DNA of 64,000 nucleotides from Minisyncoccia bacterium (lineage in GTDB: Bacteria > Patescibacteriota > Minisyncoccia > Phycocordibacterales > Phycocordibacteraceae), in NCBI GenBank assembly GCA_038212075.1, contig JBBQUV010000002.1:7343-71342 (forward strand). Reading direction: 5' to 3'. Under the pieces are notes generated by a model. The model saw only the letters and a program-made list of their open reading frames with translations, made no database searches and was not told the DNA's origin. How positions within the stretch are numbered: the first letter of the stretch is position 1; each line of letters opens with the position of its first letter. This document shows, piece by piece, positions 15,064 to 64,000 of the stretch. A program made the translations under genes and the position numbers.

Positions 15064-15201
15064 ATGGCAAAACGAACCTACCAACCAAAAAAGAGAAAAC
15101 GAGCAAAAACACACGGATTCCGTGTACGTATGAAAAGTCCGGGAGGCCGCCGTGTTATTACGCGTAGACGCCAAAAGGGTCGTCGCAAGCTCGCCGCCTA
15201 G
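15064..15201 (+). CDS. rpmH: 50S ribosomal protein L34.
   Basis: 45-aa [48 protein letters not shown]. Below the ORF-track cutoff. It sits in the canonical position upstream of rnpA. Confidence 0.85.
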
Positions 15202-15205
15202 CCTC

Positions 15206-15520
15206 ATGATGCCCCGCGGGCGCCGCCTTCCTCGCGCCGCCTTCCCTGCACTCCTGCGGGCAAAAAGGCTCTCTAGCCCTCATTTTGGGGTTTCTGTCGC
15301 TTCTGCCCCACGGGGTGGGTGTGCGGTGGTCATACCCAAAAAAGCCGTACCCCACTCGGTTGATCGGCATCTTTTGAAACGTCGAGTACTTTCCGTGCTT
15401 AAAAAGTGGTATGCCCCCCATATGGCACTTGTGGTGTATGCAAAGAATGGGAGCTCCACCCTTCCCTTCCGCATTATCCAGAGCGAACTTGAGGCACTTC
15501 TTGGTAAACTCACTGTATGA
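15206..15520 (+). CDS. rnpA: Ribonuclease P protein component.
   Basis: RnpA-like basic protein (RLSSPHFGVSVA..., KKAVPHSVDRHLLKRR). The likely start is MMPRGRR at about 15206, not the track start at 15152. Follows rpmH. Confidence 0.75.
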   Translation: MMPRGRRLPRAAFPALLRAKRLSSPHFGVSVASAPRGGCAVVIPKKAVPHSVDRHLLKRRVLSVLKKWYAPHMALVVYAKNGSSTLPFRIIQSELEALLGKLTV

Positions 15521-16254
15521 TTTCCTTTCTCTTCCACACTTATCTTTCCCTACCAATCTACAACCTTCTCATTTTTCTTGTTGGCATCATTCCAACAGGA
15601 GATGTGGGTGTCGCGGTTATTGTTGTGACGCTCGTGGTGAAGGCGGCAGTACTTCCCCTCTCTCTTTCAGCGGTTCGCACCCAGCGTTCGATGAAAGTTA
15701 TTGAACCTGAGTTGAAAGAAATAAAGGAAAAGTATAAAGACGACAAAGAAAAACAAGCAAAAGAAACGTTCGCCCTCTACAAAAAGTACAGCATCAACCC
15801 ATTTGCGAGCTTCGGTACACTTCTTATACAGCTTCCGATTCTACTCGCTCTCTACTGGGTATTTCGTGGAGAAGCACTTCCTACGATAGATGTAGCGTCG
15901 CTCTACCACTTCGTTGCTATCCCAACCGTCATATCCACGAACTTCCTCGGTATCTTTTCGGTAATACAAAAAAGTATTACTCTCGCTGTACTTGCGGCGA
16001 TAACGCAGTTTTTGCAGGCATATTTTGCTATCCCAACGCCGGCAAAAACCGAAAATGCAACCATGCAAGAAGATTTTGGCCGTGCCATGGCGATGCAAGC
16101 GCGGTTCGTCATCCCGCTTATTATTGGCCTTGTTGCCTATGAAACGTCAGGAGCCATCGCACTCTACTTCATAACGAGTAACGTCGTGATGCTTTTCCAG
16201 GAATTTTTAGTGCGTAGAACACCAGCAAAAATTTCCCCTCTAAAGACAGACTAG
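15517..16254 (+). CDS. yidC: Membrane protein insertase YidC/Oxa1 (short Gram-positive type).
   Basis: 245 aa and multi-TM. Conserved AVRTQRSMKVIEPELKEIKEKYKDD and the NP/FG region. Canonical rpmH-rnpA-yidC order. Confidence 0.85.
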   Translation: MISFLFHTYLSLPIYNLLIFLVGIIPTGDVGVAVIVVTLVVKAAVLPLSLSAVRTQRSMKVIEPELKEIKEKYKDDKEKQAKETFALYKKYSINPFASFGTLLIQLPILLALYWVFRGEALPTIDVASLYHFVAIPTVISTNFLGIFSVIQKSITLAVLAAITQFLQAYFAIPTPAKTENATMQEDFGRAMAMQARFVIPLIIGLVAYETSGAIALYFITSNVVMLFQEFLVRRTPAKISPLKTD

Positions 16255-19392: not shown

Positions 19393-20217
19393 CTAAACGA
19401 TGTACTTCATAATTCCGGAGGCATGCATTTTTTCAAGTGCTCCGTTGAATAGTTTGACGATTTTCTTTTCCTTATAGAACGCCATTAGTACGATAATGGT
19501 ATTTGCAGGGATAATTTGTAGAAACGGTATAATTTCAATAAGAATTGCAATAAAAAGGCGTTTCCAAAGCCACTTAATTACGGCTTTTTTCCACCAGCCG
19601 CCGCTAATTTTATTCCACGTCCACAACGTTAAGATGGCGCCGAGCACAATCCCTAAAAAAGAAGCAAGAATTACTCCAATACCTGTTAAATCTGCAGGTA
19701 GATCAAGAATATCTTTAGCAAGACCAACACTAAACATGAAAATAGGGAACGAAGGTTTGGCTGGCGGTGCCTCGGTCGCCAATTTTTGAGCATCAGTTGT
19801 ATGGAATTCCTCTCCTTTCTGTCTGAAGTCTTCCGCAATATCATCTAAGGTTTTGTGTATATGTGCACGTACGAGTTGAGGACTTACTCCATTTATGGAA
19901 TAGCGGGATCGCGAGGTAGTGACTTCGGACTCGCTTTCAGTTTCTTCTTCATATTCAGATTCTTCCTCTTCGGAATCTTGTGATTGTGTAGAAGAACGTA
20001 GTTGCTGGAACCGTCGTGTATTTCGTCCGTAGCGTGCAATTCCTGATTCAGTTTCAGCCGCACCAGCCGCCGCTCCCTCAGACGTTGCCGCACCCGCGGC
20101 TCCTTCAGCAGCGCCGGCTGCTCCAGTGGCAGCCAATCCTTCTGCGGCCGCTCCCCCTACAACCGCTCCTTCCGCCGCCCCACCAGCAACCGCTGCTGCA
20201 ACGATGAGTGGTGGCAT
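19393..20217 (-). CDS. Membrane protein with a low-complexity Ala/Gly-rich, acidic N-terminal region and C-terminal TM helices.
   Basis: N-terminus (GAAEGAx)n, then SEEEESEYEEETESESE, then a C-terminal hydrophobic segment with Trp-rich amphipathic stretches. T4SS island member. Confidence 0.4.
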   Translation of the reverse strand: MPPLIVAAAVAGGAAEGAVVGGAAAEGLAATGAAGAAEGAAGAATSEGAAAGAAETESGIARYGRNTRRFQQLRSSTQSQDSEEEESEYEEETESESEVTTSRSRYSINGVSPQLVRAHIHKTLDDIAEDFRQKGEEFHTTDAQKLATEAPPAKPSFPIFMFSVGLAKDILDLPADLTGIGVILASFLGIVLGAILTLWTWNKISGGWWKKAVIKWLWKRLFIAILIEIIPFLQIIPANTIIVLMAFYKEKKIVKLFNGALEKMHASGIMKYIV

Positions 20218-20220
20218 AGA

Positions 20221-22050
20221 TTATTGCGCTCCCCCGCCGCCTTCCGCGTCTAACCGATCTTTTTCACGCTTTATAGAAAGGAGTTGTGAAGGATCGGAAG
20301 TGATAATTTGGTCTTCGGTGTATGACGCCACTATTTTTATGGCAACGTGTTTAAGCCCTGCAAAAAAGAGCCCCTCCCCTACTCCGGATTCAAGAAGCAG
20401 ATATTTTTCCTCGTCGGTAAGATTGAACGTTTTCTGGAGCACATCAATAGTGGTCGGTGATTGTTTTAATAAAAGCTGGATAGAAGAGTTTGTCAGAATG
20501 GGGCGCCCGTATGGTGAGGTTAAGAAGTCTTCAACGTCTTGGGTGATAGTTGCAACACCAAGGAAGTATTTGCGTCCGCGTTTTGCAAGCGAATAGAGGA
20601 ATGATGCCGTATCTTCCGACTTCATCATCCACCACGCTTCGTCGATAACAAGCAGACGTTTTTTGAGCTCACGACGAATGGCATTCCAAATGAAGTGCGT
20701 GATGATATACATCGCCACCGGTTTTAGTTCGTCTTCCATATCTCGCACCGAGAACACAATGAATTGTTTGTTGATGTCGACGTTTGTTGGCTGGTTTAAG
20801 AAACCTGACCACGTACCATGGGTATATTTTGACAGACGTTGCACCAGCGACTCACTTCCTTCCATGCCAGAAAGCACGGCTTCAAAGTCGGAGAGGAGTG
20901 GTGGCTCTACACCGCTAAAGTCACGATCGCCTGAAATATCTTTTAAGGCATAGGTCTCACTAATGGCACGGTCAACAATAGCGTCTTCCTCTGGCGTGAG
21001 CCCGCCAAGCATAATGCGGAAGAGTCCAACAAGGGTGATGATGTTAGAGCGAAGAATATCGCCTGGTTCCTCCCCTTCTCGTACTACCGGAAGATCAAAG
21101 GGGTTGATGTGGTGTTCACTCGAAAGAGAAATATCGAACATGCGTCCACCAGCCGCTTCCGCAAGATATTCATACTCACGTTCTGGGTCAATCACAATCA
21201 CGTCGGTATCAAACATAAGCGAACGAAGAATTTCGAGTTTCACCGCAAATGACTTTCCGGAACCAGACTTTGCAAAGGTTACGGAGTTGTAGTTTTCAAG
21301 CGAGAATCGATCAAAAAGAATGAGCGAAGAGTTATGGCGGTTAATGCCAAAGAGAATGCCGTGGTCACTCGTAAGATCAAATGATACAAACGGAAAGATA
21401 GAAGAAAGTGGCGAAGAGTTGAGTTTTTGATGCACATTCAATTCATCAAGTTCCAGTGGAAGTGTGGAGCGGAAACCTTGTTCCTGTTGAAACAGTGCTG
21501 GCTTTGTATATACGAGCTTCGCATCCAAAATACCGCGAATTTCACCCTCAACCTTATCCAATTCTTCTTTTGAGTTTGCGTAAAGGGTCATATAGAGCCC
21601 AATCTCAAAGAGTTTTTCCTGCACTTGTTGGAGTTGATCGCGCAGATTTTCAATATCTTGGTATGCCGTATCAAGCATTGGGTCGCGTACCAATCCTTTT
21701 TGTTCGCGTTCTGCTATCTGGCTCTGCACTTCCGCGACTTTCTTTTGAAATTGACGAAGCACCTCACCTGTTTCAAGTGGGTGTATGAAAATACTGATAT
21801 CAAGTACTTGGTCGAGGTTAATGATGGGCGTAAACCAACTATCAGTCAAAAAGCGTGGATAGGAAATAGTGTAGTAGGAACGGGCAAATTTTTCGCCAAG
21901 TTCAAGTTCGCGAGCACTTACTTTGAGCGCCGCCGGCGCAATCATGTCGGCTAAATCAAGTGCGCCCTGCGCATAAATATCACGCGGCAAAATCGGCGTA
22001 ATTTTCGGGTCTTCTTTTTTCCCGCGATTAAGAAAATCAAGTAATGCCAT
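20221..22050 (-). CDS. virB4: VirB4/TrbE/PrgJ-family T4SS ATPase, C-terminal NTPase part.
   Basis: 609 aa. Walker A AKSGSGKSF and Walker B LLVIDEAWWMM, with VirB4-like length and arrangement. Confidence 0.75.
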   Translation of the reverse strand: MALLDFLNRGKKEDPKITPILPRDIYAQGALDLADMIAPAALKVSARELELGEKFARSYYTISYPRFLTDSWFTPIINLDQVLDISIFIHPLETGEVLRQFQKKVAEVQSQIAEREQKGLVRDPMLDTAYQDIENLRDQLQQVQEKLFEIGLYMTLYANSKEELDKVEGEIRGILDAKLVYTKPALFQQEQGFRSTLPLELDELNVHQKLNSSPLSSIFPFVSFDLTSDHGILFGINRHNSSLILFDRFSLENYNSVTFAKSGSGKSFAVKLEILRSLMFDTDVIVIDPEREYEYLAEAAGGRMFDISLSSEHHINPFDLPVVREGEEPGDILRSNIITLVGLFRIMLGGLTPEEDAIVDRAISETYALKDISGDRDFSGVEPPLLSDFEAVLSGMEGSESLVQRLSKYTHGTWSGFLNQPTNVDINKQFIVFSVRDMEDELKPVAMYIITHFIWNAIRRELKKRLLVIDEAWWMMKSEDTASFLYSLAKRGRKYFLGVATITQDVEDFLTSPYGRPILTNSSIQLLLKQSPTTIDVLQKTFNLTDEEKYLLLESGVGEGLFFAGLKHVAIKIVASYTEDQIITSDPSQLLSIKREKDRLDAEGGGGAQ

Positions 22051-32174: not shown

Positions 32175-32423
32175 ATACGTTACTATACTTCCTTAAGGCA
32201 CTAATTAAAAAAACCAAGTAAATACAGGGTATTTTTCATCCTTATTTGTTCTCCACAGCTTCATTTTCTCTTCATTGACCACGTTCTGGGTTCGGGATAG
32301 ACTGGGCGGACTGACTGAAATGAATGCATGAAAGAAATGGCTTAGGTAAGCCGTTTTTGTACCCTCTGACACGCTGAAAACCACCACCTACTTATCTTAT
32401 TTGAACCAAAAAAGACTGGCCTC

Positions 32424-33533
32424 GTGAATGTTCACCAGGGTCAAAAGAGATATGCCATCCTCGCGGCCGCGGTTGCCCTAGGCATCGTGGCTTTTGCCGT
32501 ACCTACCAAGGCTAAGGCGTTTTCCTTTTTTGATTGGCTCACTCCTTCTGCACAGGCAGGTTCGAATGCTGTAGTGCCTGACGCCACACTTCCTATACTC
32601 AATTCCGCGGTAAATACTGACCCGAACCCCAACAAGGGTCAGCGCGGTCTCGCCCTTACTGAAAGTTCCGCACTTATTTCTGAAGCGGGACCTAATGGAA
32701 CCCCGGTGGATGCAGACACTACACCAACCGGCAGTACTATTTCTTTGTATGTTGTACGTGCTGGAGATACTCTCTCTGAAATCGCCTCATTGTTTGGTAT
32801 TTCGGCAAGCACAGTGCTTTGGGCAAACAATTTGGCAAGCGCGAAAGATATTCATCCGGGCGACACCCTTCTCATTCTCCCTGTTTCCGGTATTCAACAC
32901 ACTATTAAAAAGGGAGAAACCATTGCGACCATTGCTACAACGTACGGCGGCGACGCATCCGACATCGCTTCTTTTAACGGCCTTGATTCTGCAAAAGGAC
33001 TCGCGGTTGGCACTACGATTATTATTCCGGGCGGTGAAGCAGTTTCCGCCCCGACAGTACAAACAAAACCAGTTCAAACTATTGCCTCGTCTGTTTCAAG
33101 TGTGGCAAGTTCTATTACACGGAGTCTTGCGCGTACGAGTGGTCCTGCGCTTTTTGGATACTACAGCAACCCTGTTCCAGGTGGCATTATCACGCAAGGT
33201 ATTCATCCAACAAATGGGGTTGATATTGGTGCTCGCTCCGGCGCACCTATTTATGCGGCCGCTGACGGAAAAATAATTGTATCGCGCACAAGCGGGTGGA
33301 ACGGTGGATACGGTAACTACGTGGTTATTAAGCACGCAAATGGTACGCAAACCCTCTATGCGCATATGAGCAAAAATGTTTCAGCGCTTGGTTCTATGGT
33401 GGAAAAAGGTGAGCTCATTGGATATGTTGGTGCAAGCGGAAATGCGACTGGCCCGCATCTTCACTTTGAAGTACGTGGTGCACAGAACCCTTTTGCACAC
33501 TGCGCTGTGCTTTCCATCTGTCGCCCCCAGTAG
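32424..33533 (+). CDS. LysM-domain M23-family peptidoglycan endopeptidase.
   Basis: Signal peptide, LysM (YVVRAGDTLSEIASLFGISASTVLWANNL), and an M23 domain with HxxxD and HLHFE motifs (GVDIGA...GPHLHFEV). Confidence 0.85.
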   Translation: MNVHQGQKRYAILAAAVALGIVAFAVPTKAKAFSFFDWLTPSAQAGSNAVVPDATLPILNSAVNTDPNPNKGQRGLALTESSALISEAGPNGTPVDADTTPTGSTISLYVVRAGDTLSEIASLFGISASTVLWANNLASAKDIHPGDTLLILPVSGIQHTIKKGETIATIATTYGGDASDIASFNGLDSAKGLAVGTTIIIPGGEAVSAPTVQTKPVQTIASSVSSVASSITRSLARTSGPALFGYYSNPVPGGIITQGIHPTNGVDIGARSGAPIYAAADGKIIVSRTSGWNGGYGNYVVIKHANGTQTLYAHMSKNVSALGSMVEKGELIGYVGASGNATGPHLHFEVRGAQNPFAHCAVLSICRPQ

Positions 33534-33605
33534 TTTGACGACCTAAGGTGCCTGTGGTAGTTTGATGAAACGCCGCGATGTCGCGGCGTTTGACGTGAAA
33601 AACCT

Positions 33606-33983
33606 TTGGAGGTTACCTTGAAACTTCATACCGTTCTTATGAGCAGCATCGCTGCCCTTACCTATCCGCCGTCCGAAGCCGTCGCCGCCAAGACGTTGAT
33701 CCAGGTCCAGACGCTCGAACCGTTCGCTCGCGCGACGCCGTTCAAGCACAAGACCGAAGTCACCGACGTTCTCGACACGGCGATCGGCGCGGCCACGCAG
33801 GGCTACGGCACCAAACGCAGCGACACCAAGTCTGGTGTGCTGAAGATGCTGAAGACCATGCGCGCCGACGTCCAGGCGGTGAAGGAAGACAACGACACGG
33901 TGGCCGCCCAAACCAACGGCGCCGGCGCGGCAATCGATCGTGCGCGGCACGCTGGCGACGACGGACGTCGCACGGCGCTCTAG
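33606..33983 (+). CDS. Hypothetical small protein inside a high-GC island whose codon usage looks foreign.
   Basis: The ORF begins with TTG, and a GGAGG motif precedes a second in-frame TTG at about 33618. GC3 is far above the rest of the window. A strong intrinsic terminator lies immediately downstream on the same strand. The overlapping minus-strand ORF 33543..33950 reads as a high-GC shadow. Confidence 0.4.
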   Translation: MEVTLKLHTVLMSSIAALTYPPSEAVAAKTLIQVQTLEPFARATPFKHKTEVTDVLDTAIGAATQGYGTKRSDTKSGVLKMLKTMRADVQAVKEDNDTVAAQTNGAGAAIDRARHAGDDGRRTAL

Positions 33984-34012
33984 CGCAAGAAGATCTCCAT
34001 TTGGAGACGACA

Positions 34013-34052
34013 GTGGCCGGAGGGATAAAATCCTCCGGCCACTTTTCTTTTT
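34013..34052 (+). terminator. Rho-independent terminator (GTGGCCGGAGG-GATAAAA-CCTCCGGCCAC plus TTTTCTTTTT).
   Basis: 11-bp GC-rich stem followed by a U-tract, directly after the high-GC ORF. Confidence 0.65.
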
Positions 34053-34054
34053 AT

Positions 34055-35617
34055 TTACTCAAATCCAAATAACCCGCGTGGGCGGTACTGAAGCGCTTCG
34101 TGAATGTGCGCGGGCAAGACCTTTTCACTATTTCCTAAATCAGCAATAGTTCGCGCAACGCGCATGACGCGATGATACGCACGTGGAGACAAATCCAAAC
34201 GGTTTGCGGCAGACAGGAGTGTCGTTTTTGCTTCATCGGTAAACTCTGCGCGTTCATCAAGTTCTTTTCCGGAAAGTCGTGCATTTACCGCGCCCTTCTT
34301 CCCTGCTCGTTTCTCTGCACGCCCTCGTGCACTAGTCACGCGTTCTCGAACACGTTCTGATTTTTCTCCCGTAGAAAGTTTTGCAAGCGATTCGTGTGGA
34401 ATGTGTGCAACCTCTACCCATAAATCTAAACGGTCAACGATAGGGCGTGAAATTTTTCGCGCTTGTTTAAGCGCCGCACGCACGGCGACTTCCGCGTCTG
34501 CGCTCAGTGTGTTTGCCGGGTTCATTGCGGCAACAATCATGCAGTCAGCAGGAAAGGTAATGGTTGCTTTGGCGCGAGATACGGTAACCGCACGGTCTTC
34601 AAGCGGTTGCCGCAGTGCCTCAAGCACCCTTGATTCAAATTCAACAAATTCATCAAGAAACAGCACTCCTTTATGTGCCAAGGTTACCTCACCCGCTTTT
34701 GGGTAGGCGCCACCACCCACAATCGCCGTGTGCGAAGTGGTGTGGTGCGGCGCACGAAACGGTGGCCAGAACACTGCCTCACCTTCTTGGAGCGTTCCAG
34801 CAGTTGAGTGAATGGCAGTAACCTCAAGTACTTCGTCCGGCGTGAGCGGCGGTAAAATACCAGAAAGCGCACGCGCAAGCATCGTTTTTCCTGTTCCAGG
34901 TGGGCCATAGAGCACTATGTTATGTCGTCCTGCCGCGGCAATTTCAAGCGCACGTTTCGCACTTTCCTGTCCTTTTACTTCACCCAGATCAATAGTGGGT
35001 ATCGGGATACTGGTGCGTTTTTGTGCAATGACTTTTGGTAACATTTTCTCACCCTTCAAATGAAGCGCAAGCTCTTCAAGTGTTTTTGGTGCGTACACGG
35101 TCATTCCTTCGGCAAGAAGCGCCTCGCGTGTATTTCCAAGTGGTACGTATACGGTGATGATGTTGGCACGCTTTGCGGCAAGTACTTGTGGAAGAATGCC
35201 ACGCACACTGCGTAGTGTCCCATCAAGAGCAAGCTCACCAGCAAAGAGCGCGGGTGTTTTTTGTTCGGGTAGGTCGCCTGCCGCAATTAAATAACACAAC
35301 GCGAGTGGAACATCGTAATGGGAACCCTCTTTTTTCAAATCTGCTGGCGACAGTGAAAGAATGATGCGTTTGTTTTGCGTCTTTGGCGATTTAAACCCCG
35401 AGTGACGAATGGCGGCGCTAATGCGGTCGCGCGATTCTTCAACCGCTTTATCTGGAAGTCCGACGACGGAAAAAGAGTGAAGTCCACGCGTGAGATCGGC
35501 CTCTATGGTAACGAGTTCAGCGTTTGCGCCGACCGGCTGAGCGGCGCTAAGTTTTGCATAGCCGCGACTTTCGTCTTTCTTTTTCTTCACTGGTGCAAGC
35601 GGTTTTTGTTCAGTCAC
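34055..35617 (-). CDS. comM: YifB/ComM-family Mg-chelatase-like AAA+ ATPase (competence protein ComM).
   Basis: 520 aa, with an N-terminal Lon-protease-like domain and an AAA+ module ([13 protein letters not shown]). Confidence 0.85.
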
Positions 35618-35635
35618 TCGGATATTCTACGGTAT

Positions 35636-35670
35636 AAAAATACGCACCCGCGCGAGCGGGTGCGTATTTT
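35636..35670 (-). terminator. Hairpin terminator (AAAATACGCACCCGC-GCGA-GCGGGTGCGTATTTT) downstream of the dksA-like gene.
   Basis: 15-bp stem flanked by A and T runs. Confidence 0.55.
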
Positions 35671-35680
35671 GGAACAGCGG

Positions 35681-36028
35681 TTACATATGTGCCTTACAGG
35701 TACGCGCGGCAGGATCAGCATTCAAACGATCAGTTTCAATTGCTTCACCCGATACTTCGCATGTGCCGTACGTTCCTTTTTCTATACGCGCGAGTGCAGA
35801 AAGCACATCGTTGTAGCGAATTTCCAAATCTTTAAGGATGGCAGTGTTTTCTTCGTACCCTTCAATTTTATCGGCAACATCGTTTGGGTCAGGTTCCGGT
35901 TCCGTTTCTTGCGGCACCGCTTCCCAATCGTTTGGATTAGAAGGATTACGTCGCCCAATACTACTGAGCTCACTTTCTAGTTTTATTTTTTCAGCTTCAA
36001 GCAGATGCTGATACGTATCGGTATTCAT
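35681..36028 (-). CDS. DksA/TraR-family C4 zinc-finger protein.
   Basis: C-terminal CEVSGEAIETDRLNADPAARTCKAH is the DksA/TraR Cys4 finger. The likely start is MNTDTYQ (ATG about 36028). Confidence 0.7.
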   Translation of the reverse strand: MNTDTYQHLLEAEKIKLESELSSIGRRNPSNPNDWEAVPQETEPEPDPNDVADKIEGYEENTAILKDLEIRYNDVLSALARIEKGTYGTCEVSGEAIETDRLNADPAARTCKAHM

Positions 36029-36064
36029 GCGCGCATCGTAGCACTCGCCGCCCAAAGGAAGCAA

Positions 36065-37747
36065 CTACTGTGTTCTTGTTGCGGAAAGACGGGCGAGAAG
36101 TACGGAGAATGCGGTTTCGTCGCGAGCAATGACCAACGTGTTTTGGTCGCGGTATCCGTACAGGAAGAGTGTTTTTCCATTTGCATCTTTGTATGCTCGC
36201 ACGTCGTGGCTGTCGACAACTTCGTCGACAAAGTGCGCGCGTCCAATGCCGGCAGGAACGAGTGGTGGAGGCAGTGGTTGTGTGGTGCTTGCTGTGGTTG
36301 TGCCGATTACCATCGCTGTTTGCGGATAGGGTGGGTAAAGTGGCGCGAAGTCGCTCCCCATAGTTGCTTCCCACGAAAGCATTCCCGCGAAGGTGCGTTC
36401 ATAGGATGTTGCGGCGAGTACAAAAAATACGCGCGTTTCATCGCCTGCGTGTACGACACCAACAGTGCTGTTATCACCGATATTGCGAAGCAAAATGTCT
36501 GGCGTGGAAAGGTTCAGTGCCTTTATGAGGGTGCCACCTCCAACGGTTGATGTTGCTGATACCGCAAGATACAACACACGCACTGTTCCAATTGGTGTTG
36601 CGGTGTTTTCTGCGTCACGAAGTGCAGTAACCAGTGAACCGCCCTGTCCGGAAATGGTCGCCGACTCATCTCCAGCAATAAGTGTTGGAGGAGCATTGGT
36701 AATGATGGAAATAGGCTGTGTTCCCGTAAAGAAGGTATAGCTGTAGTACAAAAGAAGTGACCCGCCAATAAAGAGCGCCGCTCCGCCAAGCATGTATGCA
36801 AGCCCAAGGTTTTGTTTTGGTGCTTCTACACTTTGCGGCTGTAGGGCTCCTCCCGCGTCTGCTTGCGCGGCGTACACAGAAAATCCCGATGACTGTTGCC
36901 GATTTAGTTTGTTAGAAAAATCATCGGTATAGGTTCGAAGGCGTTCTGGTTCTTGTACAGCAACTACCGGAGCGAGTTTTTGTATAGGGGCAGGCGGGGG
37001 TGTGTATACCGGCACCGCTTCTGGTTTTGGTGCGGGGAAGACTGGCGGCGGAGGGAGGTTCTGTTTTTTATATGTGTCCACTTTTGTGCGCAAGCGCGCC
37101 AACACCACTTCACGCTCCTCGACATCGTTTTTTGCTTCTTCGGGTGGTTTGAATGTCGGCGCAAACACTTCCACTGCTTCTGGTGCGCGCGGTTTTTGCC
37201 ACACGGGTGCGGTAACTGGTATATAACTTTGCTGTACCGGAGGTGTCGTCGTCGGCATGCCGAAAATAAACGCAAAGAGCTTTGACGTGAACGAAAGTTT
37301 TTTTCTTGTTGCTGGGCCTTCCCACTCTCTGGGTGTTGTTGCTTCTGTCGCGGCTAACTGTATTGGCGGTTTTGTTGGCACCGGCAAGTTTTTCTTTGTA
37401 AGTTGCGGTAGATGTGGCGCTTCAATGATTGGTTCAGAAGCGGACATCTTTGCTACGGTTTCAGATAGTGAAGGACGAAGCGGTTTAGGTGGTGGAGGCG
37501 CCGGCGCCGGTTGAATGGAAACCGGTGGTGGGGTTGGGGCAATAGGTTTTGGAGGAGCCTGTACGACAGTTTGAGGCACCGGCGCAACCACTGGTGCTGG
37601 AGCACCAGTGAGTGTTGCAACATCATCGGCGTAGGTGCGCACTACTCGTTTTGGGTTTGTGGGGAAGGTTCGTTCTTGTATTGTCACACCCACTTCACTT
37701 GCGAGTGTTTTTGGTTGGACGATGGGTTGAGTATCTGCCATGAGCAA
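36065..37747 (-). CDS. Proline-rich membrane-associated hypothetical protein.
   Basis: 560 aa. Long PxxP/AP-rich low-complexity N-terminal half, one TM segment (LGLAYMLGGAALFIGGSLLLYY) and a globular C-terminal domain. Confidence 0.45.
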   Translation of the reverse strand: MLMADTQPIVQPKTLASEVGVTIQERTFPTNPKRVVRTYADDVATLTGAPAPVVAPVPQTVVQAPPKPIAPTPPPVSIQPAPAPPPPKPLRPSLSETVAKMSASEPIIEAPHLPQLTKKNLPVPTKPPIQLAATEATTPREWEGPATRKKLSFTSKLFAFIFGMPTTTPPVQQSYIPVTAPVWQKPRAPEAVEVFAPTFKPPEEAKNDVEEREVVLARLRTKVDTYKKQNLPPPPVFPAPKPEAVPVYTPPPAPIQKLAPVVAVQEPERLRTYTDDFSNKLNRQQSSGFSVYAAQADAGGALQPQSVEAPKQNLGLAYMLGGAALFIGGSLLLYYSYTFFTGTQPISIITNAPPTLIAGDESATISGQGGSLVTALRDAENTATPIGTVRVLYLAVSATSTVGGGTLIKALNLSTPDILLRNIGDNSTVGVVHAGDETRVFFVLAATSYERTFAGMLSWEATMGSDFAPLYPPYPQTAMVIGTTTASTTQPLPPPLVPAGIGRAHFVDEVVDSHDVRAYKDANGKTLFLYGYRDQNTLVIARDETAFSVLLARLSATRTQ

Positions 37748-58827: not shown

Positions 58828-59727
58828 TTAAAGCGAAACCGGCATTCCAATCGAAAGTGTTCCCGAACCCTTCGGCACTGCATTCACGCCGAAGTAGATT
58901 TTGCCGTCGCGTTCCGCGCTACGTACGCGACGGTACGTTGCCAAGGTTCGCATAGGCTCGTTGTTCGGGTCGTGGTTCGCAAAGTGCGATGAACCACGAT
59001 CAGTGTGCACTTCAATCGCGCGACAACGCGAACAAAGTTTAACCCGATCAAAGACGTTACTGTCACCGAAGGTAATCGGTGCAAGCGTGTCTTCTTCGTG
59101 TGCTTCGGTGCCGCCGATGACGATGTTTGGCCGAAACCGCTCCATTGATGCAGGCGACTGATCATGCGCAATCAAACGATGCGTGAGTTGGTCGTGCGAT
59201 GCTTGCGACAGTATCATGGCGGGGTAGCCGTCTTGAGCATGAAGCGGAATTGCGCACCCCATTTGCGTTGAGTGGCGTGTCCGCTCGTGCCACGGGATTG
59301 ATCGCATCAACCGTACCTTCATTCCGAGACATTCGGAAAAAAACTTGTCGTAGGCGATGCCCATTTCGAGCATCCACGAGGTCTCGCGATGAATGATGAC
59401 CACCGCTTCGGGCAGTTCACCTGGTTCTGGTTGTTGAAGCGATATCACCATAGCGCCGACGCCATGTCGGGTTACGGTGACGCCGATTCCGCGCCTACTC
59501 ACGCTGAAGTCGGCGAGGTTCGGGAAGTCACGAAGGGTGACCATGTTCCCTTTTTCGTCGACCAGCATGAACATGCGGTCGTGTTCGAACCCTTTCGGGG
59601 TGTAGAGAGCTTCACTCACGGAGATGCCGGGGAGACTTTTGATTGGATAGATGGAAAGACCTGTAATTGATACGCCTGTCTTTGTCATGTCGTGCCCTCG
59701 CGTTTGGTTTGTGTGCACCATGCACAC
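58828..59727 (-). CDS. MOSC-domain protein (YcbX-like; N-terminal MOSC beta-barrel plus MOSC domain).
   Basis: LSIYPIKS near the N-terminus, RFRPNIVIGG, and the C-terminal conserved Cys region (KLCSRCRAIEV). The start may be the internal MTKTG at about 59688. Confidence 0.7.
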   Translation of the reverse strand: MCMVHTNQTRGHDMTKTGVSITGLSIYPIKSLPGISVSEALYTPKGFEHDRMFMLVDEKGNMVTLRDFPNLADFSVSRRGIGVTVTRHGVGAMVISLQQPEPGELPEAVVIIHRETSWMLEMGIAYDKFFSECLGMKVRLMRSIPWHERTRHSTQMGCAIPLHAQDGYPAMILSQASHDQLTHRLIAHDQSPASMERFRPNIVIGGTEAHEEDTLAPITFGDSNVFDRVKLCSRCRAIEVHTDRGSSHFANHDPNNEPMRTLATYRRVRSAERDGKIYFGVNAVPKGSGTLSIGMPVSL

Positions 59728-60509: not shown

Positions 60510-60824
60510 TTAGTAGGCGTACTCGAGTTTGAACGCCACAACATCGAGGTGTGCGCTATTGCGCAAGAATCCAATGATGTTGCGGTACAGCGTGCTGACG
60601 GGGCTGTTGATGAGGCCAGGTGATTCACCCGGTTTCCGCTCATCGTCCTTCGTCAGTTCAACAATGCCGTGCACGACGACTGGTGGTGTTCCGCCACCTC
60701 TCGCCGAAGTGATGACGTAGGAGAGTTCGCCCGTGTCGATTTCCGGGACACAATCCAGCGCCATTCTGACGGCTTTTTCTATATTGTAGCCGCCCGGTAC
60801 GGCAAGCTCAAGGTTCAACTTCAT
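60510..60824 (-). CDS. Hypothetical small protein, possibly of the MTH1187/YkoF-like (DUF77) fold.
   Basis: 104 aa. The N-terminal pattern MKLNLELAVPGGYNIEKAV gives only a weak family resemblance. Confidence 0.3.
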   Translation of the reverse strand: MKLNLELAVPGGYNIEKAVRMALDCVPEIDTGELSYVITSARGGGTPPVVVHGIVELTKDDERKPGESPGLINSPVSTLYRNIIGFLRNSAHLDVVAFKLEYAY

Positions 60825-63566: not shown

Positions 63567-63680
63567 TTAAAGCACTGTACCACACTACCCTGTTTTGGTG
63601 CCTATTGCGTAAAACGGCGTATTTCCTATACTTCCGCCATACCCTGCCTAGGGCAGGAATTAGCCCTTAATCCAATCCCT

Positions 63681-63953
63681 ATGAATAAAGCGGACATCAT
63701 AGATAAAGTGCATGGCGTTCTCGGCGGCACGAAAGCAGATGCTGAGCGTGCAGTGGAGTGCATGATTCAAAGCGTTCACGACGGGCTTAAAAAGGGTGAC
63801 GAAGTATCTGTTGCTGGTCTTGGTATCTTTGTTACCAAAGCACGTCCAGCTCGCGATGGTCGTAACCCACGCACGGGTGAATCCATCCGCATTGCGGCAA
63901 CTCGCACGCCAAAGTTTCGCCCTGCAAAGGCACTCAAAGACGCGGTTAAGTAA
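63681..63953 (+). CDS. hup: DNA-binding protein HU.
   Basis: 90 aa with the arm region GRNPRTGESIRI. Confidence 0.9.
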   Translation: MNKADIIDKVHGVLGGTKADAERAVECMIQSVHDGLKKGDEVSVAGLGIFVTKARPARDGRNPRTGESIRIAATRTPKFRPAKALKDAVK

Positions 63954-63966
63954 GGTTGTATGTTCC

Positions 63967-64000
63967 AAAACGAAAACCCGCTTCAGGCGGGTTTTCGTTT
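63967..64000 (+). terminator. Intrinsic terminator (AAAACGAAAACCCGC-TTCAG-GCGGGTTTTCGTTT).
   Basis: Read from the sequence. Confidence 0.6.

Follow-up and report, generated by a model that had tools for sequence, protein, structure and literature searches.

Horizontally acquired ORFans have classically been recognised by atypical G+C content (GC), atypical GC at third codon positions (GC3) and atypical codon usage, all of which are later subject to amelioration. Here we describe a small gene that invites comparison with them. It lies in a 64,000-nucleotide stretch of contig JBBQUV010000002.1 from a Minisyncoccia bacterium (GenBank assembly GCA_038212075.1), referred to below as the window, where it occupies a 0.5-kb high-GC segment (33540-34052) between a LysM-M23 peptidase gene and comM. 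Two further systems are close to this locus. In aquatic prokaryotes, Lopez-Perez et al. (2014; PMC4033161) documented flexible genomic islands, integration hotspots between conserved core genes, that are replaced through homologous recombination. The com genes are conserved across bacteria of the candidate phyla radiation (CPR) (PMC10633639), and in Saccharibacteria Com-dependent DNA uptake followed by homologous recombination was used to put a cassette between two convergent open reading frames (ORFs), a neutral site (Wang et al. 2023, PMC10633639).

We favour, with moderate confidence, the reading that the segment is an accessory cassette in a variable junction, and that its ORF was acquired by recombination from within the clade, the donor being a member of high GC. 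The gene resembles atypical ORFans in its sharp local rise of GC and GC3, in codon usage that fits another genome, in its patchy distribution and in its small, uncharacterised product. It differs from them in that the likely donor belongs to the same clade and the gene to the same chromosomal position, and in that no mobility gene, tRNA or repeat accompanies it. As in flexible islands, conserved flanks (M23 and comM) enclose a variable content, here of 7 nt to 4.2 kb, for which recombination in the flanks is the easiest explanation; unlike in such islands, a single 0.5-kb gene is concerned, and the lineages compared are deeply diverged (71-81% ComM identity) rather than strains. With the Saccharibacteria experiment our locus shares a Patescibacteria lineage and a cassette between convergently transcribed genes, but the former was a laboratory construct in a different class, while for the window organism we can only infer competence.

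The preliminary description of this DNA had pointed to an island of more than 60% GC in a chromosome of roughly 50%, and the measurements bear this out. GC is 0.602 over 33540-34052 and 0.639 over the ORF, against 0.486 for the whole window and 48.7% and 50.3% for the two 5-kb flanks of the segment. A sliding GC profile (380-nt intervals; mean 0.487, standard deviation (sd) 0.036) deviates clearly here: the window maximum, 0.653, falls at 33641-34020, ~4.6 sd over the mean. Maximum-scoring-segment analysis ranks the same place first, with a segment that starts at 33643 or 33666 and ends at 33986 (GC 0.67, log-likelihood score 22.5); the highest score among 200 shuffles was 14.0. The core of the anomaly (33666-33986, plus strand, GC 0.67) thus delimited lies within the ORF body. 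The leader (33534-33617) has a GC of 0.51 and the trailer (33984-34054) of 0.48. GC3 is host-typical in the M23 gene (0.41; 0.30-0.53 in its last 150 codons) and in comM (0.42; 0.23-0.47 in its last 150 codons). Because the flanking gene ends, the leader and the trailer are all unremarkable in composition, the anomaly is restricted to the ORF body; a foreign tract reaching into the flanking genes is ruled out by the host-typical GC3 of their last 150 codons.

The extreme third-position bias reported earlier is equally real. The small gene (33618-33983, plus strand; 121 codons and a stop) has a GC of 0.64 and a GC3 of 0.80, and the ORF in its longer form (33606-33983) has GC of 0.63, 0.48 and 0.80 at codon positions 1, 2 and 3. 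Among the 57 other window ORFs of at least 100 aa, GC3 averages 0.447 (sd 0.064) and does not exceed 0.657.

Relatives of the small protein are very few. HMMER, run exhaustively over 1.84 billion representative proteins, returned three credible ones: P0002 (120 aa, 50% identity, E = 5e-20), P0003 (125 aa, E = 4e-9) and P0005 (142 aa, E = 7e-4). A profile built from the four sequences retrieved those four alone from 5.8 billion clusters, and the family amounts to four sequence clusters among ~15 billion proteins. A word-indexed search with the 125-aa ORF matched the gene itself and nothing else, and a scan of metagenome contigs with the family alignment returned a single contig (L085), which was the already known L084. 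One further candidate, P0004, is a repeat protein of 4,884 aa whose E value of 6e-5 is a sum across five repeats; it was discarded as a likely compositional or repeat artefact and gave no match in the profile search.

The genomic setting of these relatives is uniform. P0002 is encoded on L082, a 33-kb Joint Genome Institute (JGI) contig of 60% GC, in the order KsgA(-), UvrD(-), LysM-M23(+), small gene(+), comM(-), DksA(-). P0005 is encoded at two loci, L083 and L084 (the L084 contig has 52% GC), in the order UvrD(-), LysM-M23(+), small gene(+), a 129-aa gene, comM(-), DksA(-). The gene order of the window matches that of all three. P0003 comes from a 1.6-kb contig, on which the small gene stands between partial genes of the plus and the minus strand, a three-gene arrangement like that of the other loci. 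For a wider comparison we used 80 comM loci (L002-L081) from GTDB species representatives, with ComM 71-81% identical at the amino-acid level; the ComM comparison puts the host genome in the Kaiserbacteria/Paceibacteria group. Six-frame ORFs of these 80 loci contain no homologue of the small gene. The family is known only from the M23/comM slot of a few related Patescibacteria lineages.

The slot itself is variable. M23 and comM are convergent neighbours in 71 of the 80 relative loci, and the gap between them, 521 nt in the window, ranges there from 7 to 4,176 nt: 29 loci have no more than 110 nt, nine have 111-300 nt, 16 have 301-1000 nt and 17 have more than 1000 nt. Long junctions carry mutually unrelated cargo, including 23S_rRNA_IVP four-helix-bundle proteins (several loci), an NYN nuclease, Fic/DOC, an IS200 Y1 transposase, an Fe/Mn superoxide dismutase and small putative lipoproteins, and short junctions are empty or hold one hairpin that is probably a bidirectional terminator. 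Gene content at the M23/comM junction (L005, L009, L021, L034 and L050 are examples) is hypervariable in this clade, which makes the junction a hotspot.

Codon usage ties the window ORF to a GC-richer genome. In a likelihood test of synonymous codons under window versus L082 codon tables, all 40 window genes scored positive (+0.11 to +0.51 per codon), while the small ORF scored -0.27 per codon (-32 nats in total), so the earlier observation that its codon usage is unlike that of every other gene in the window holds. Genes of L082 average -0.28 in this test, which places the small ORF in the middle of their distribution. In L082 the small gene is compositionally native, with a GC3 of 0.84 against 0.68-0.80 in its neighbours; the corresponding values are 0.64 against 0.48-0.55 in L084 and 0.80 against 0.39-0.42 in the window. 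The body of the window ORF has the synonymous codon usage of a relative of ~60-65% GC such as the L082 lineage; GC3 in the host is ~0.42. Locus GC across the clade relatives spans 0.43-0.68, so potential high-GC donors exist inside the clade.

Pairwise identities rank the relatives differently for the ORF and for its surroundings. For the flanking genes the window is closer to L084 than to L082 (UvrD 78 versus 69%, M23 61 versus 51%, C-terminus of ComM 83 versus 65%), and the leader follows the same order at the nucleotide level (70 versus 56%; 59/84 and 46/82 matches). For the small protein the order is reversed, 36% with L084 and 52% with L082, in what is a comparison of three taxa, unrooted and without a clock. 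Together with the codon evidence, the reversal favours an origin of the ORF in a high-GC lineage on the L082 side. It is also suggestive of a resident cassette whose coding part may have been replaced by a foreign allele, the leader and flanks being nearest to L084 and the ORF nearest to L082.

In this reading the M23-comM gap holds a single accessory transcription unit, complete in itself and made up of a promoter-like block, a predicted 5′ hairpin, the GGAGG with the TTG at 33618, the 121-codon ORF and a strong terminator. The likely and most economical route of transfer is DNA uptake and then recombination, homologous or facilitated by homology, through the leader and the conserved flanks; the donor would be a high-GC clade member from the L082 side. 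Its entry into the host genome was probably fairly recent. The proposal of recent horizontal acquisition in the preliminary description was accordingly right in kind, given the strong compositional signal, but 'foreign-looking' should not be taken to mean a source outside the lineage, since the relatives all sit in the M23/comM slot; the source was most probably a GC-richer relative with the gene in the same slot.

Several points weigh against this reading. No donor sequence was found, and the closest homologue is 50-52% identical, so that transfer would be read from composition and from a rootless comparison of three taxa. The GC3 of the small gene equals or exceeds that of its neighbours in all three loci, and a gene-specific bias towards G/C-ending codons could therefore contribute. 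The divergence of the small protein between the window and L082 (~50%) is like that of the adjacent M23 protein (51%) and alone would fit vertical descent. The discordance between leader and ORF rests on 84 nt and is statistically weak. The nearest available genome has 81% ComM identity, which leaves no close strain in which recombination scars could be sought. Finally, competence and recombination in the host lineage are assumed by analogy with other CPR bacteria.

Some of these points are what vertical inheritance would lead one to expect. In that case the cassette would already have occupied the slot in the ancestor shared by the lineages of the window, L084 and L082, and would have been lost elsewhere, under gene-specific pressure for G/C-ending codons; its high GC3 would be maintained by selection, for instance on mRNA structure or stability, or by mutational or gene-conversion bias acting locally. 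All carriers share the slot and the conserved leader, GC3 rises over that of the neighbours in L084 and slightly in L082, and the divergence of the small protein from L082 parallels that of M23. We nevertheless regard this as unlikely. The GC3 excess over the host in the window is +0.39 (z ~5.5), far past the offsets seen in L084 and L082; the codon usage of the ORF lands exactly on the genome-wide usage of L082; the small protein is least similar (36%) between the two most closely related hosts; and no other gene of the window has such a GC3 bias.

A more specialised role for the junction may also be imagined, although we think it decidedly improbable. Instead of a passive neutral site, the M23/comM junction might be a slot dedicated to exchange. 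The conserved leader, with its promoter block, hairpin and GGCGTTTRACGT, would then serve as a recombination or regulatory handle for swapping alleles of a fast-evolving small basic protein among Kaiserbacteria lineages; the protein would modulate the LysM-M23 hydrolase or assist ComM in DNA uptake and recombination, and the high GC3 in all hosts would belong to the biology.

Import from outside the clade, in which a proteobacterium or actinobacterium of high GC, as host or as neighbour, supplied the gene as cargo of a small mobile element, has little to recommend it. The codon usage and the style of the terminator do recall typical high-GC bacteria, and Rfam offers a match to the alphaproteobacterial small RNA (sRNA) ar35, which at E = 3 and 15 bits against a cut-off of 45 is not significant. 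Against this, neither the 1.84 billion representatives nor the 5.8 billion clusters contain a homologue beyond the Patescibacteria M23/comM slot, blastn of the island against plasmid and phage collections came back empty, and PHROG and PADLOC gave no match. The suggestion of a small mobile cargo gene found no structural support either. We found no terminal repeats, target-site duplication, transposase, integrase or recombinase at the segment, which holds a single ORF without a Pfam domain, and no tRNA anywhere in the window. A repeat search over 33350-34250 gave no direct or inverted pair bracketing the island, its sole 12-nt direct repeat lying wholly to the left. In a check for an attC-like site, a conserved hairpin and the leader motif GGCGTTTRACGT were seen to accompany the gene, but they stand 5′ of the ORF, with no integron integrase nearby and no recombination junctions seen.

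The 12-nt direct repeat, GTAGTTTGACGA / GTAGTTTGATGA, occupies 33530-33541 and 33557-33568 (27-nt spacing). Its first copy spans the M23 stop codon and a -35-like hexamer and its second a -10-like hexamer; since both copies lie left of the island, the repeat is probably due to chance.

An assembly or binning chimera, in which a high-GC fragment of another organism was joined into the contig, had been offered earlier as a second explanation of the island, and we now give it hardly any credence. In its favour, composition changes abruptly on either side of a short stretch, and the genome is a metagenome-derived assembly, where chimeras occur. An independent Logan assembly (SRR19962015), however, provides a 3,291-nt contig that matches 32372-35662 at 100% identity and so covers both junctions, and the same gene order recurs in at least three other metagenomes. 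The segment is moreover an exact and complete intergenic unit (predicted promoter, Shine-Dalgarno (SD) site, ORF, terminator) between two intact genes, and its leader is most like that of the closest carrier, L084. This contig of a metagenome-assembled genome (MAG) is thus very probably not chimeric at the island.

The small ORF is a genuine protein gene. Its four-sequence alignment conserves the motifs QVQTL, P-[FY]-KHK-x-EV, L-x-MLKTM-x-x-DV and TNGAGAAI-[DE]-R. Codon-aligned identity between the window and L082 is 65, 61 and 47% at positions 1, 2 and 3; third positions diverge most, which indicates that this frame is under protein-level constraint. A 135-aa ORF on the antisense strand was rejected, its codon-position GC and conservation pattern being wrong for that frame. 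That the stretch encodes a structured RNA and no protein, or that the ORF is spurious, as long ORFs readily arise in DNA of high GC, is barely worth entertaining: antisense stop-free stretches of 96-169 codons exist as well and the small ORF lacks a known protein domain, but the GC3 > GC1 > GC2 pattern is confined to the small-ORF frame, amino-acid motifs (P-[FY]-KHK-x-EV, LKTM, TNGAGAAI-[DE]-R) are conserved while third positions diverge, the SD site and start codon are conserved in place, and Rfam yields nothing at gathering scores and noise only at E ≥ 2.

The start of the gene differs from the one first proposed, a 125-aa ORF with GGAGG before a TTG. The ORF, the GGAGG (33608-33612, plus strand, read from the sequence) and a TTG are all real, but the TTG at 33606, which gives 125 aa, overlaps the GGAGG and was rejected in favour of the TTG at 33618. 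The latter is served by the GGAGG with a 5-nt spacer, yields 121 aa and is where the homologue alignments begin. The database gene call uses an alternative start, ATG 33639, for a product of 114 aa. At the position of the SD site L082 has GGAGAAG and L084 has GAGGGA.

Small and all-alpha, the product is basic, with a pI of 9.3. Searches against Pfam, NCBIfam, PADLOC, PHROGs and PDB sequences gave nothing significant. A Sec signal peptide was considered and rejected as inconsistent across the family, with N-terminal hydrophobicity from 0.38 to 2.15. The sole functional clue is the fixed location beside a cell-wall hydrolase gene.

The transcription unit begins directly 3′ of the M23 stop with a promoter-like block (33535-33563, plus strand): TTGACG (33535-33540), a 17-nt spacer ending in TGg, and TAGTTT (33558-33563). 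Its placement and spacing are unchanged in L082 (TTGACG-17-TAATTT) and L084 (TTGACT-17-TAGGTT), and the pattern TTGAC-N15-TGN-TANNNT has one match in the window, the block itself, against 0.1 expected. The -10 element is weak, and a scan with the consensus sigma-70 promoter missed the block. On this conservation we take 33535-33563 to be the likely promoter of the small gene.

Five to seven nt downstream of the block begins a perfect hairpin, AAACGCCGCGA-TG-TCGCGGCGTTT (33568-33591, plus strand), at the predicted 5′ end of the small-gene transcript. The 75-nt leader containing it has a folding energy of -22.2 kcal/mol (z -2.6). L084 matches it at 23/24 positions; L082 retains a stem of other sequence that is one pair longer (CGCCACGG/CCGTGGCG). 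The 3′ arm and tail of the hairpin form the leader motif GGCGTTTGACGT (33585-33596, plus strand). GGCGTTTRACGT, which occurs once in the window, is confined to loci carrying the small gene (L001, L082, L083, L084/L085) and is found in 0 of the 80 other relatives.

Stem-loops at the 5′ terminus, such as that of the ompA 5′ untranslated region (UTR), stabilise bacterial mRNAs. The hairpin here is likewise stable, lies ~0-2 nt from the predicted transcription start and is conserved with the small gene. Unlike the ompA type, it may equally be a weak terminator of M23 or a protein-binding site, and the comparison set consists of three sequences with no clean compensatory substitutions. Its position at the mRNA 5′ end suggests that it probably stabilises the mRNA, weakly terminates M23 transcription, or does both.

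Downstream of the ORF, a small hairpin is followed by an intrinsic terminator (34012-34053, plus strand), which is as strong as the preliminary description had supposed. It has a 13-bp stem, AGTGGCCGGAGGG/(T)CCTCCGGCCACT, and then TTTCTTTTTA, and it abuts the comM stop; the hairpin proper (34012-34043) has nine G-C pairs and a 6-nt loop ahead of the TTTCTTTTTA tail, and has a folding energy of -34.4 kcal/mol (z -7.4). In L082 and L084 the equivalent place is taken by terminators that also combine a hairpin with a T run but differ in sequence. The small gene would be a monocistronic unit. Elsewhere in the clade, junctions of 47-62 nt (L063, L051, L049, L015, L028, L010) contain one hairpin that is flanked by an A run and, across the stem, by a T run; this single hairpin between the stop codons is probably a bidirectional terminator common to the convergent genes. 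The gaps of 7-20 nt in other relatives are too short for such a hairpin.

Pfam confirms both neighbours between which the island had been placed. On the left lies the LysM-LysM-Peptidase_M23 gene (32424-33533, plus strand; stop TAG at 33531-33533; Peptidase_M23 E = 5e-31, LysM E = 7e-24), and on the right, convergent with it, comM (34055-35617, minus strand; ChlI / Mg_chelatase / Mg_chelatase_C, E = 2e-78). Both are intact through their conserved C-termini and stop codons. Beyond comM, a gene of the DksA/TraR zinc-finger type (35681-36064) has downstream of it a gene for a 560-aa proline-rich protein without a Pfam domain (36065-37747, minus strand); the counterpart position in L082 holds a 387-aa protein without domains. 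The extra gene of L083 and L084 (5346-5735 of L084, plus strand) encodes 129 aa with a signal-peptide-like N-terminus. The L084 protein bears a weak similarity to a 121-aa secreted-looking ORF in the slot of L003 (24% identity, BLASTP E = 0.04 in a single comparison).

Other parts of the window deviate in composition as well. The second-ranked high-GC segment (20057-20248, GC 0.70) corresponds to the low-complexity N-terminus, rich in Ala and Gly, of a membrane protein of 274 aa (19393-20217, minus strand), so its high GC is due to amino-acid composition and not to GC3. The adjoining gene encodes a TraG/VirB4-like P-loop ATPase (20221-22050, minus strand). A MOSC-domain gene (MOSC_N and MOSC; 58828-59727, minus strand) has a GC3 of 0.61 against the window mean of 0.45 and is a milder candidate for atypical origin. 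Three short ORFs (15158-15556, 60510-60824 and 63660-63968) have a GC3 of 0.62-0.66 and no Pfam match, and may not be genes.

The phenomenon is of a known kind and will not surprise a specialist; what is new is the example, a small and previously unnamed protein family of four clusters, and the conserved leader element that goes with it. The locus provides a small, clean case of probable gene flow among Patescibacteria lineages of widely differing GC (43-68% in the clade). Their organisms are uncultured and have reduced genomes with conserved competence genes, and the case hints, indirectly, that DNA uptake and recombination shape their accessory genome.

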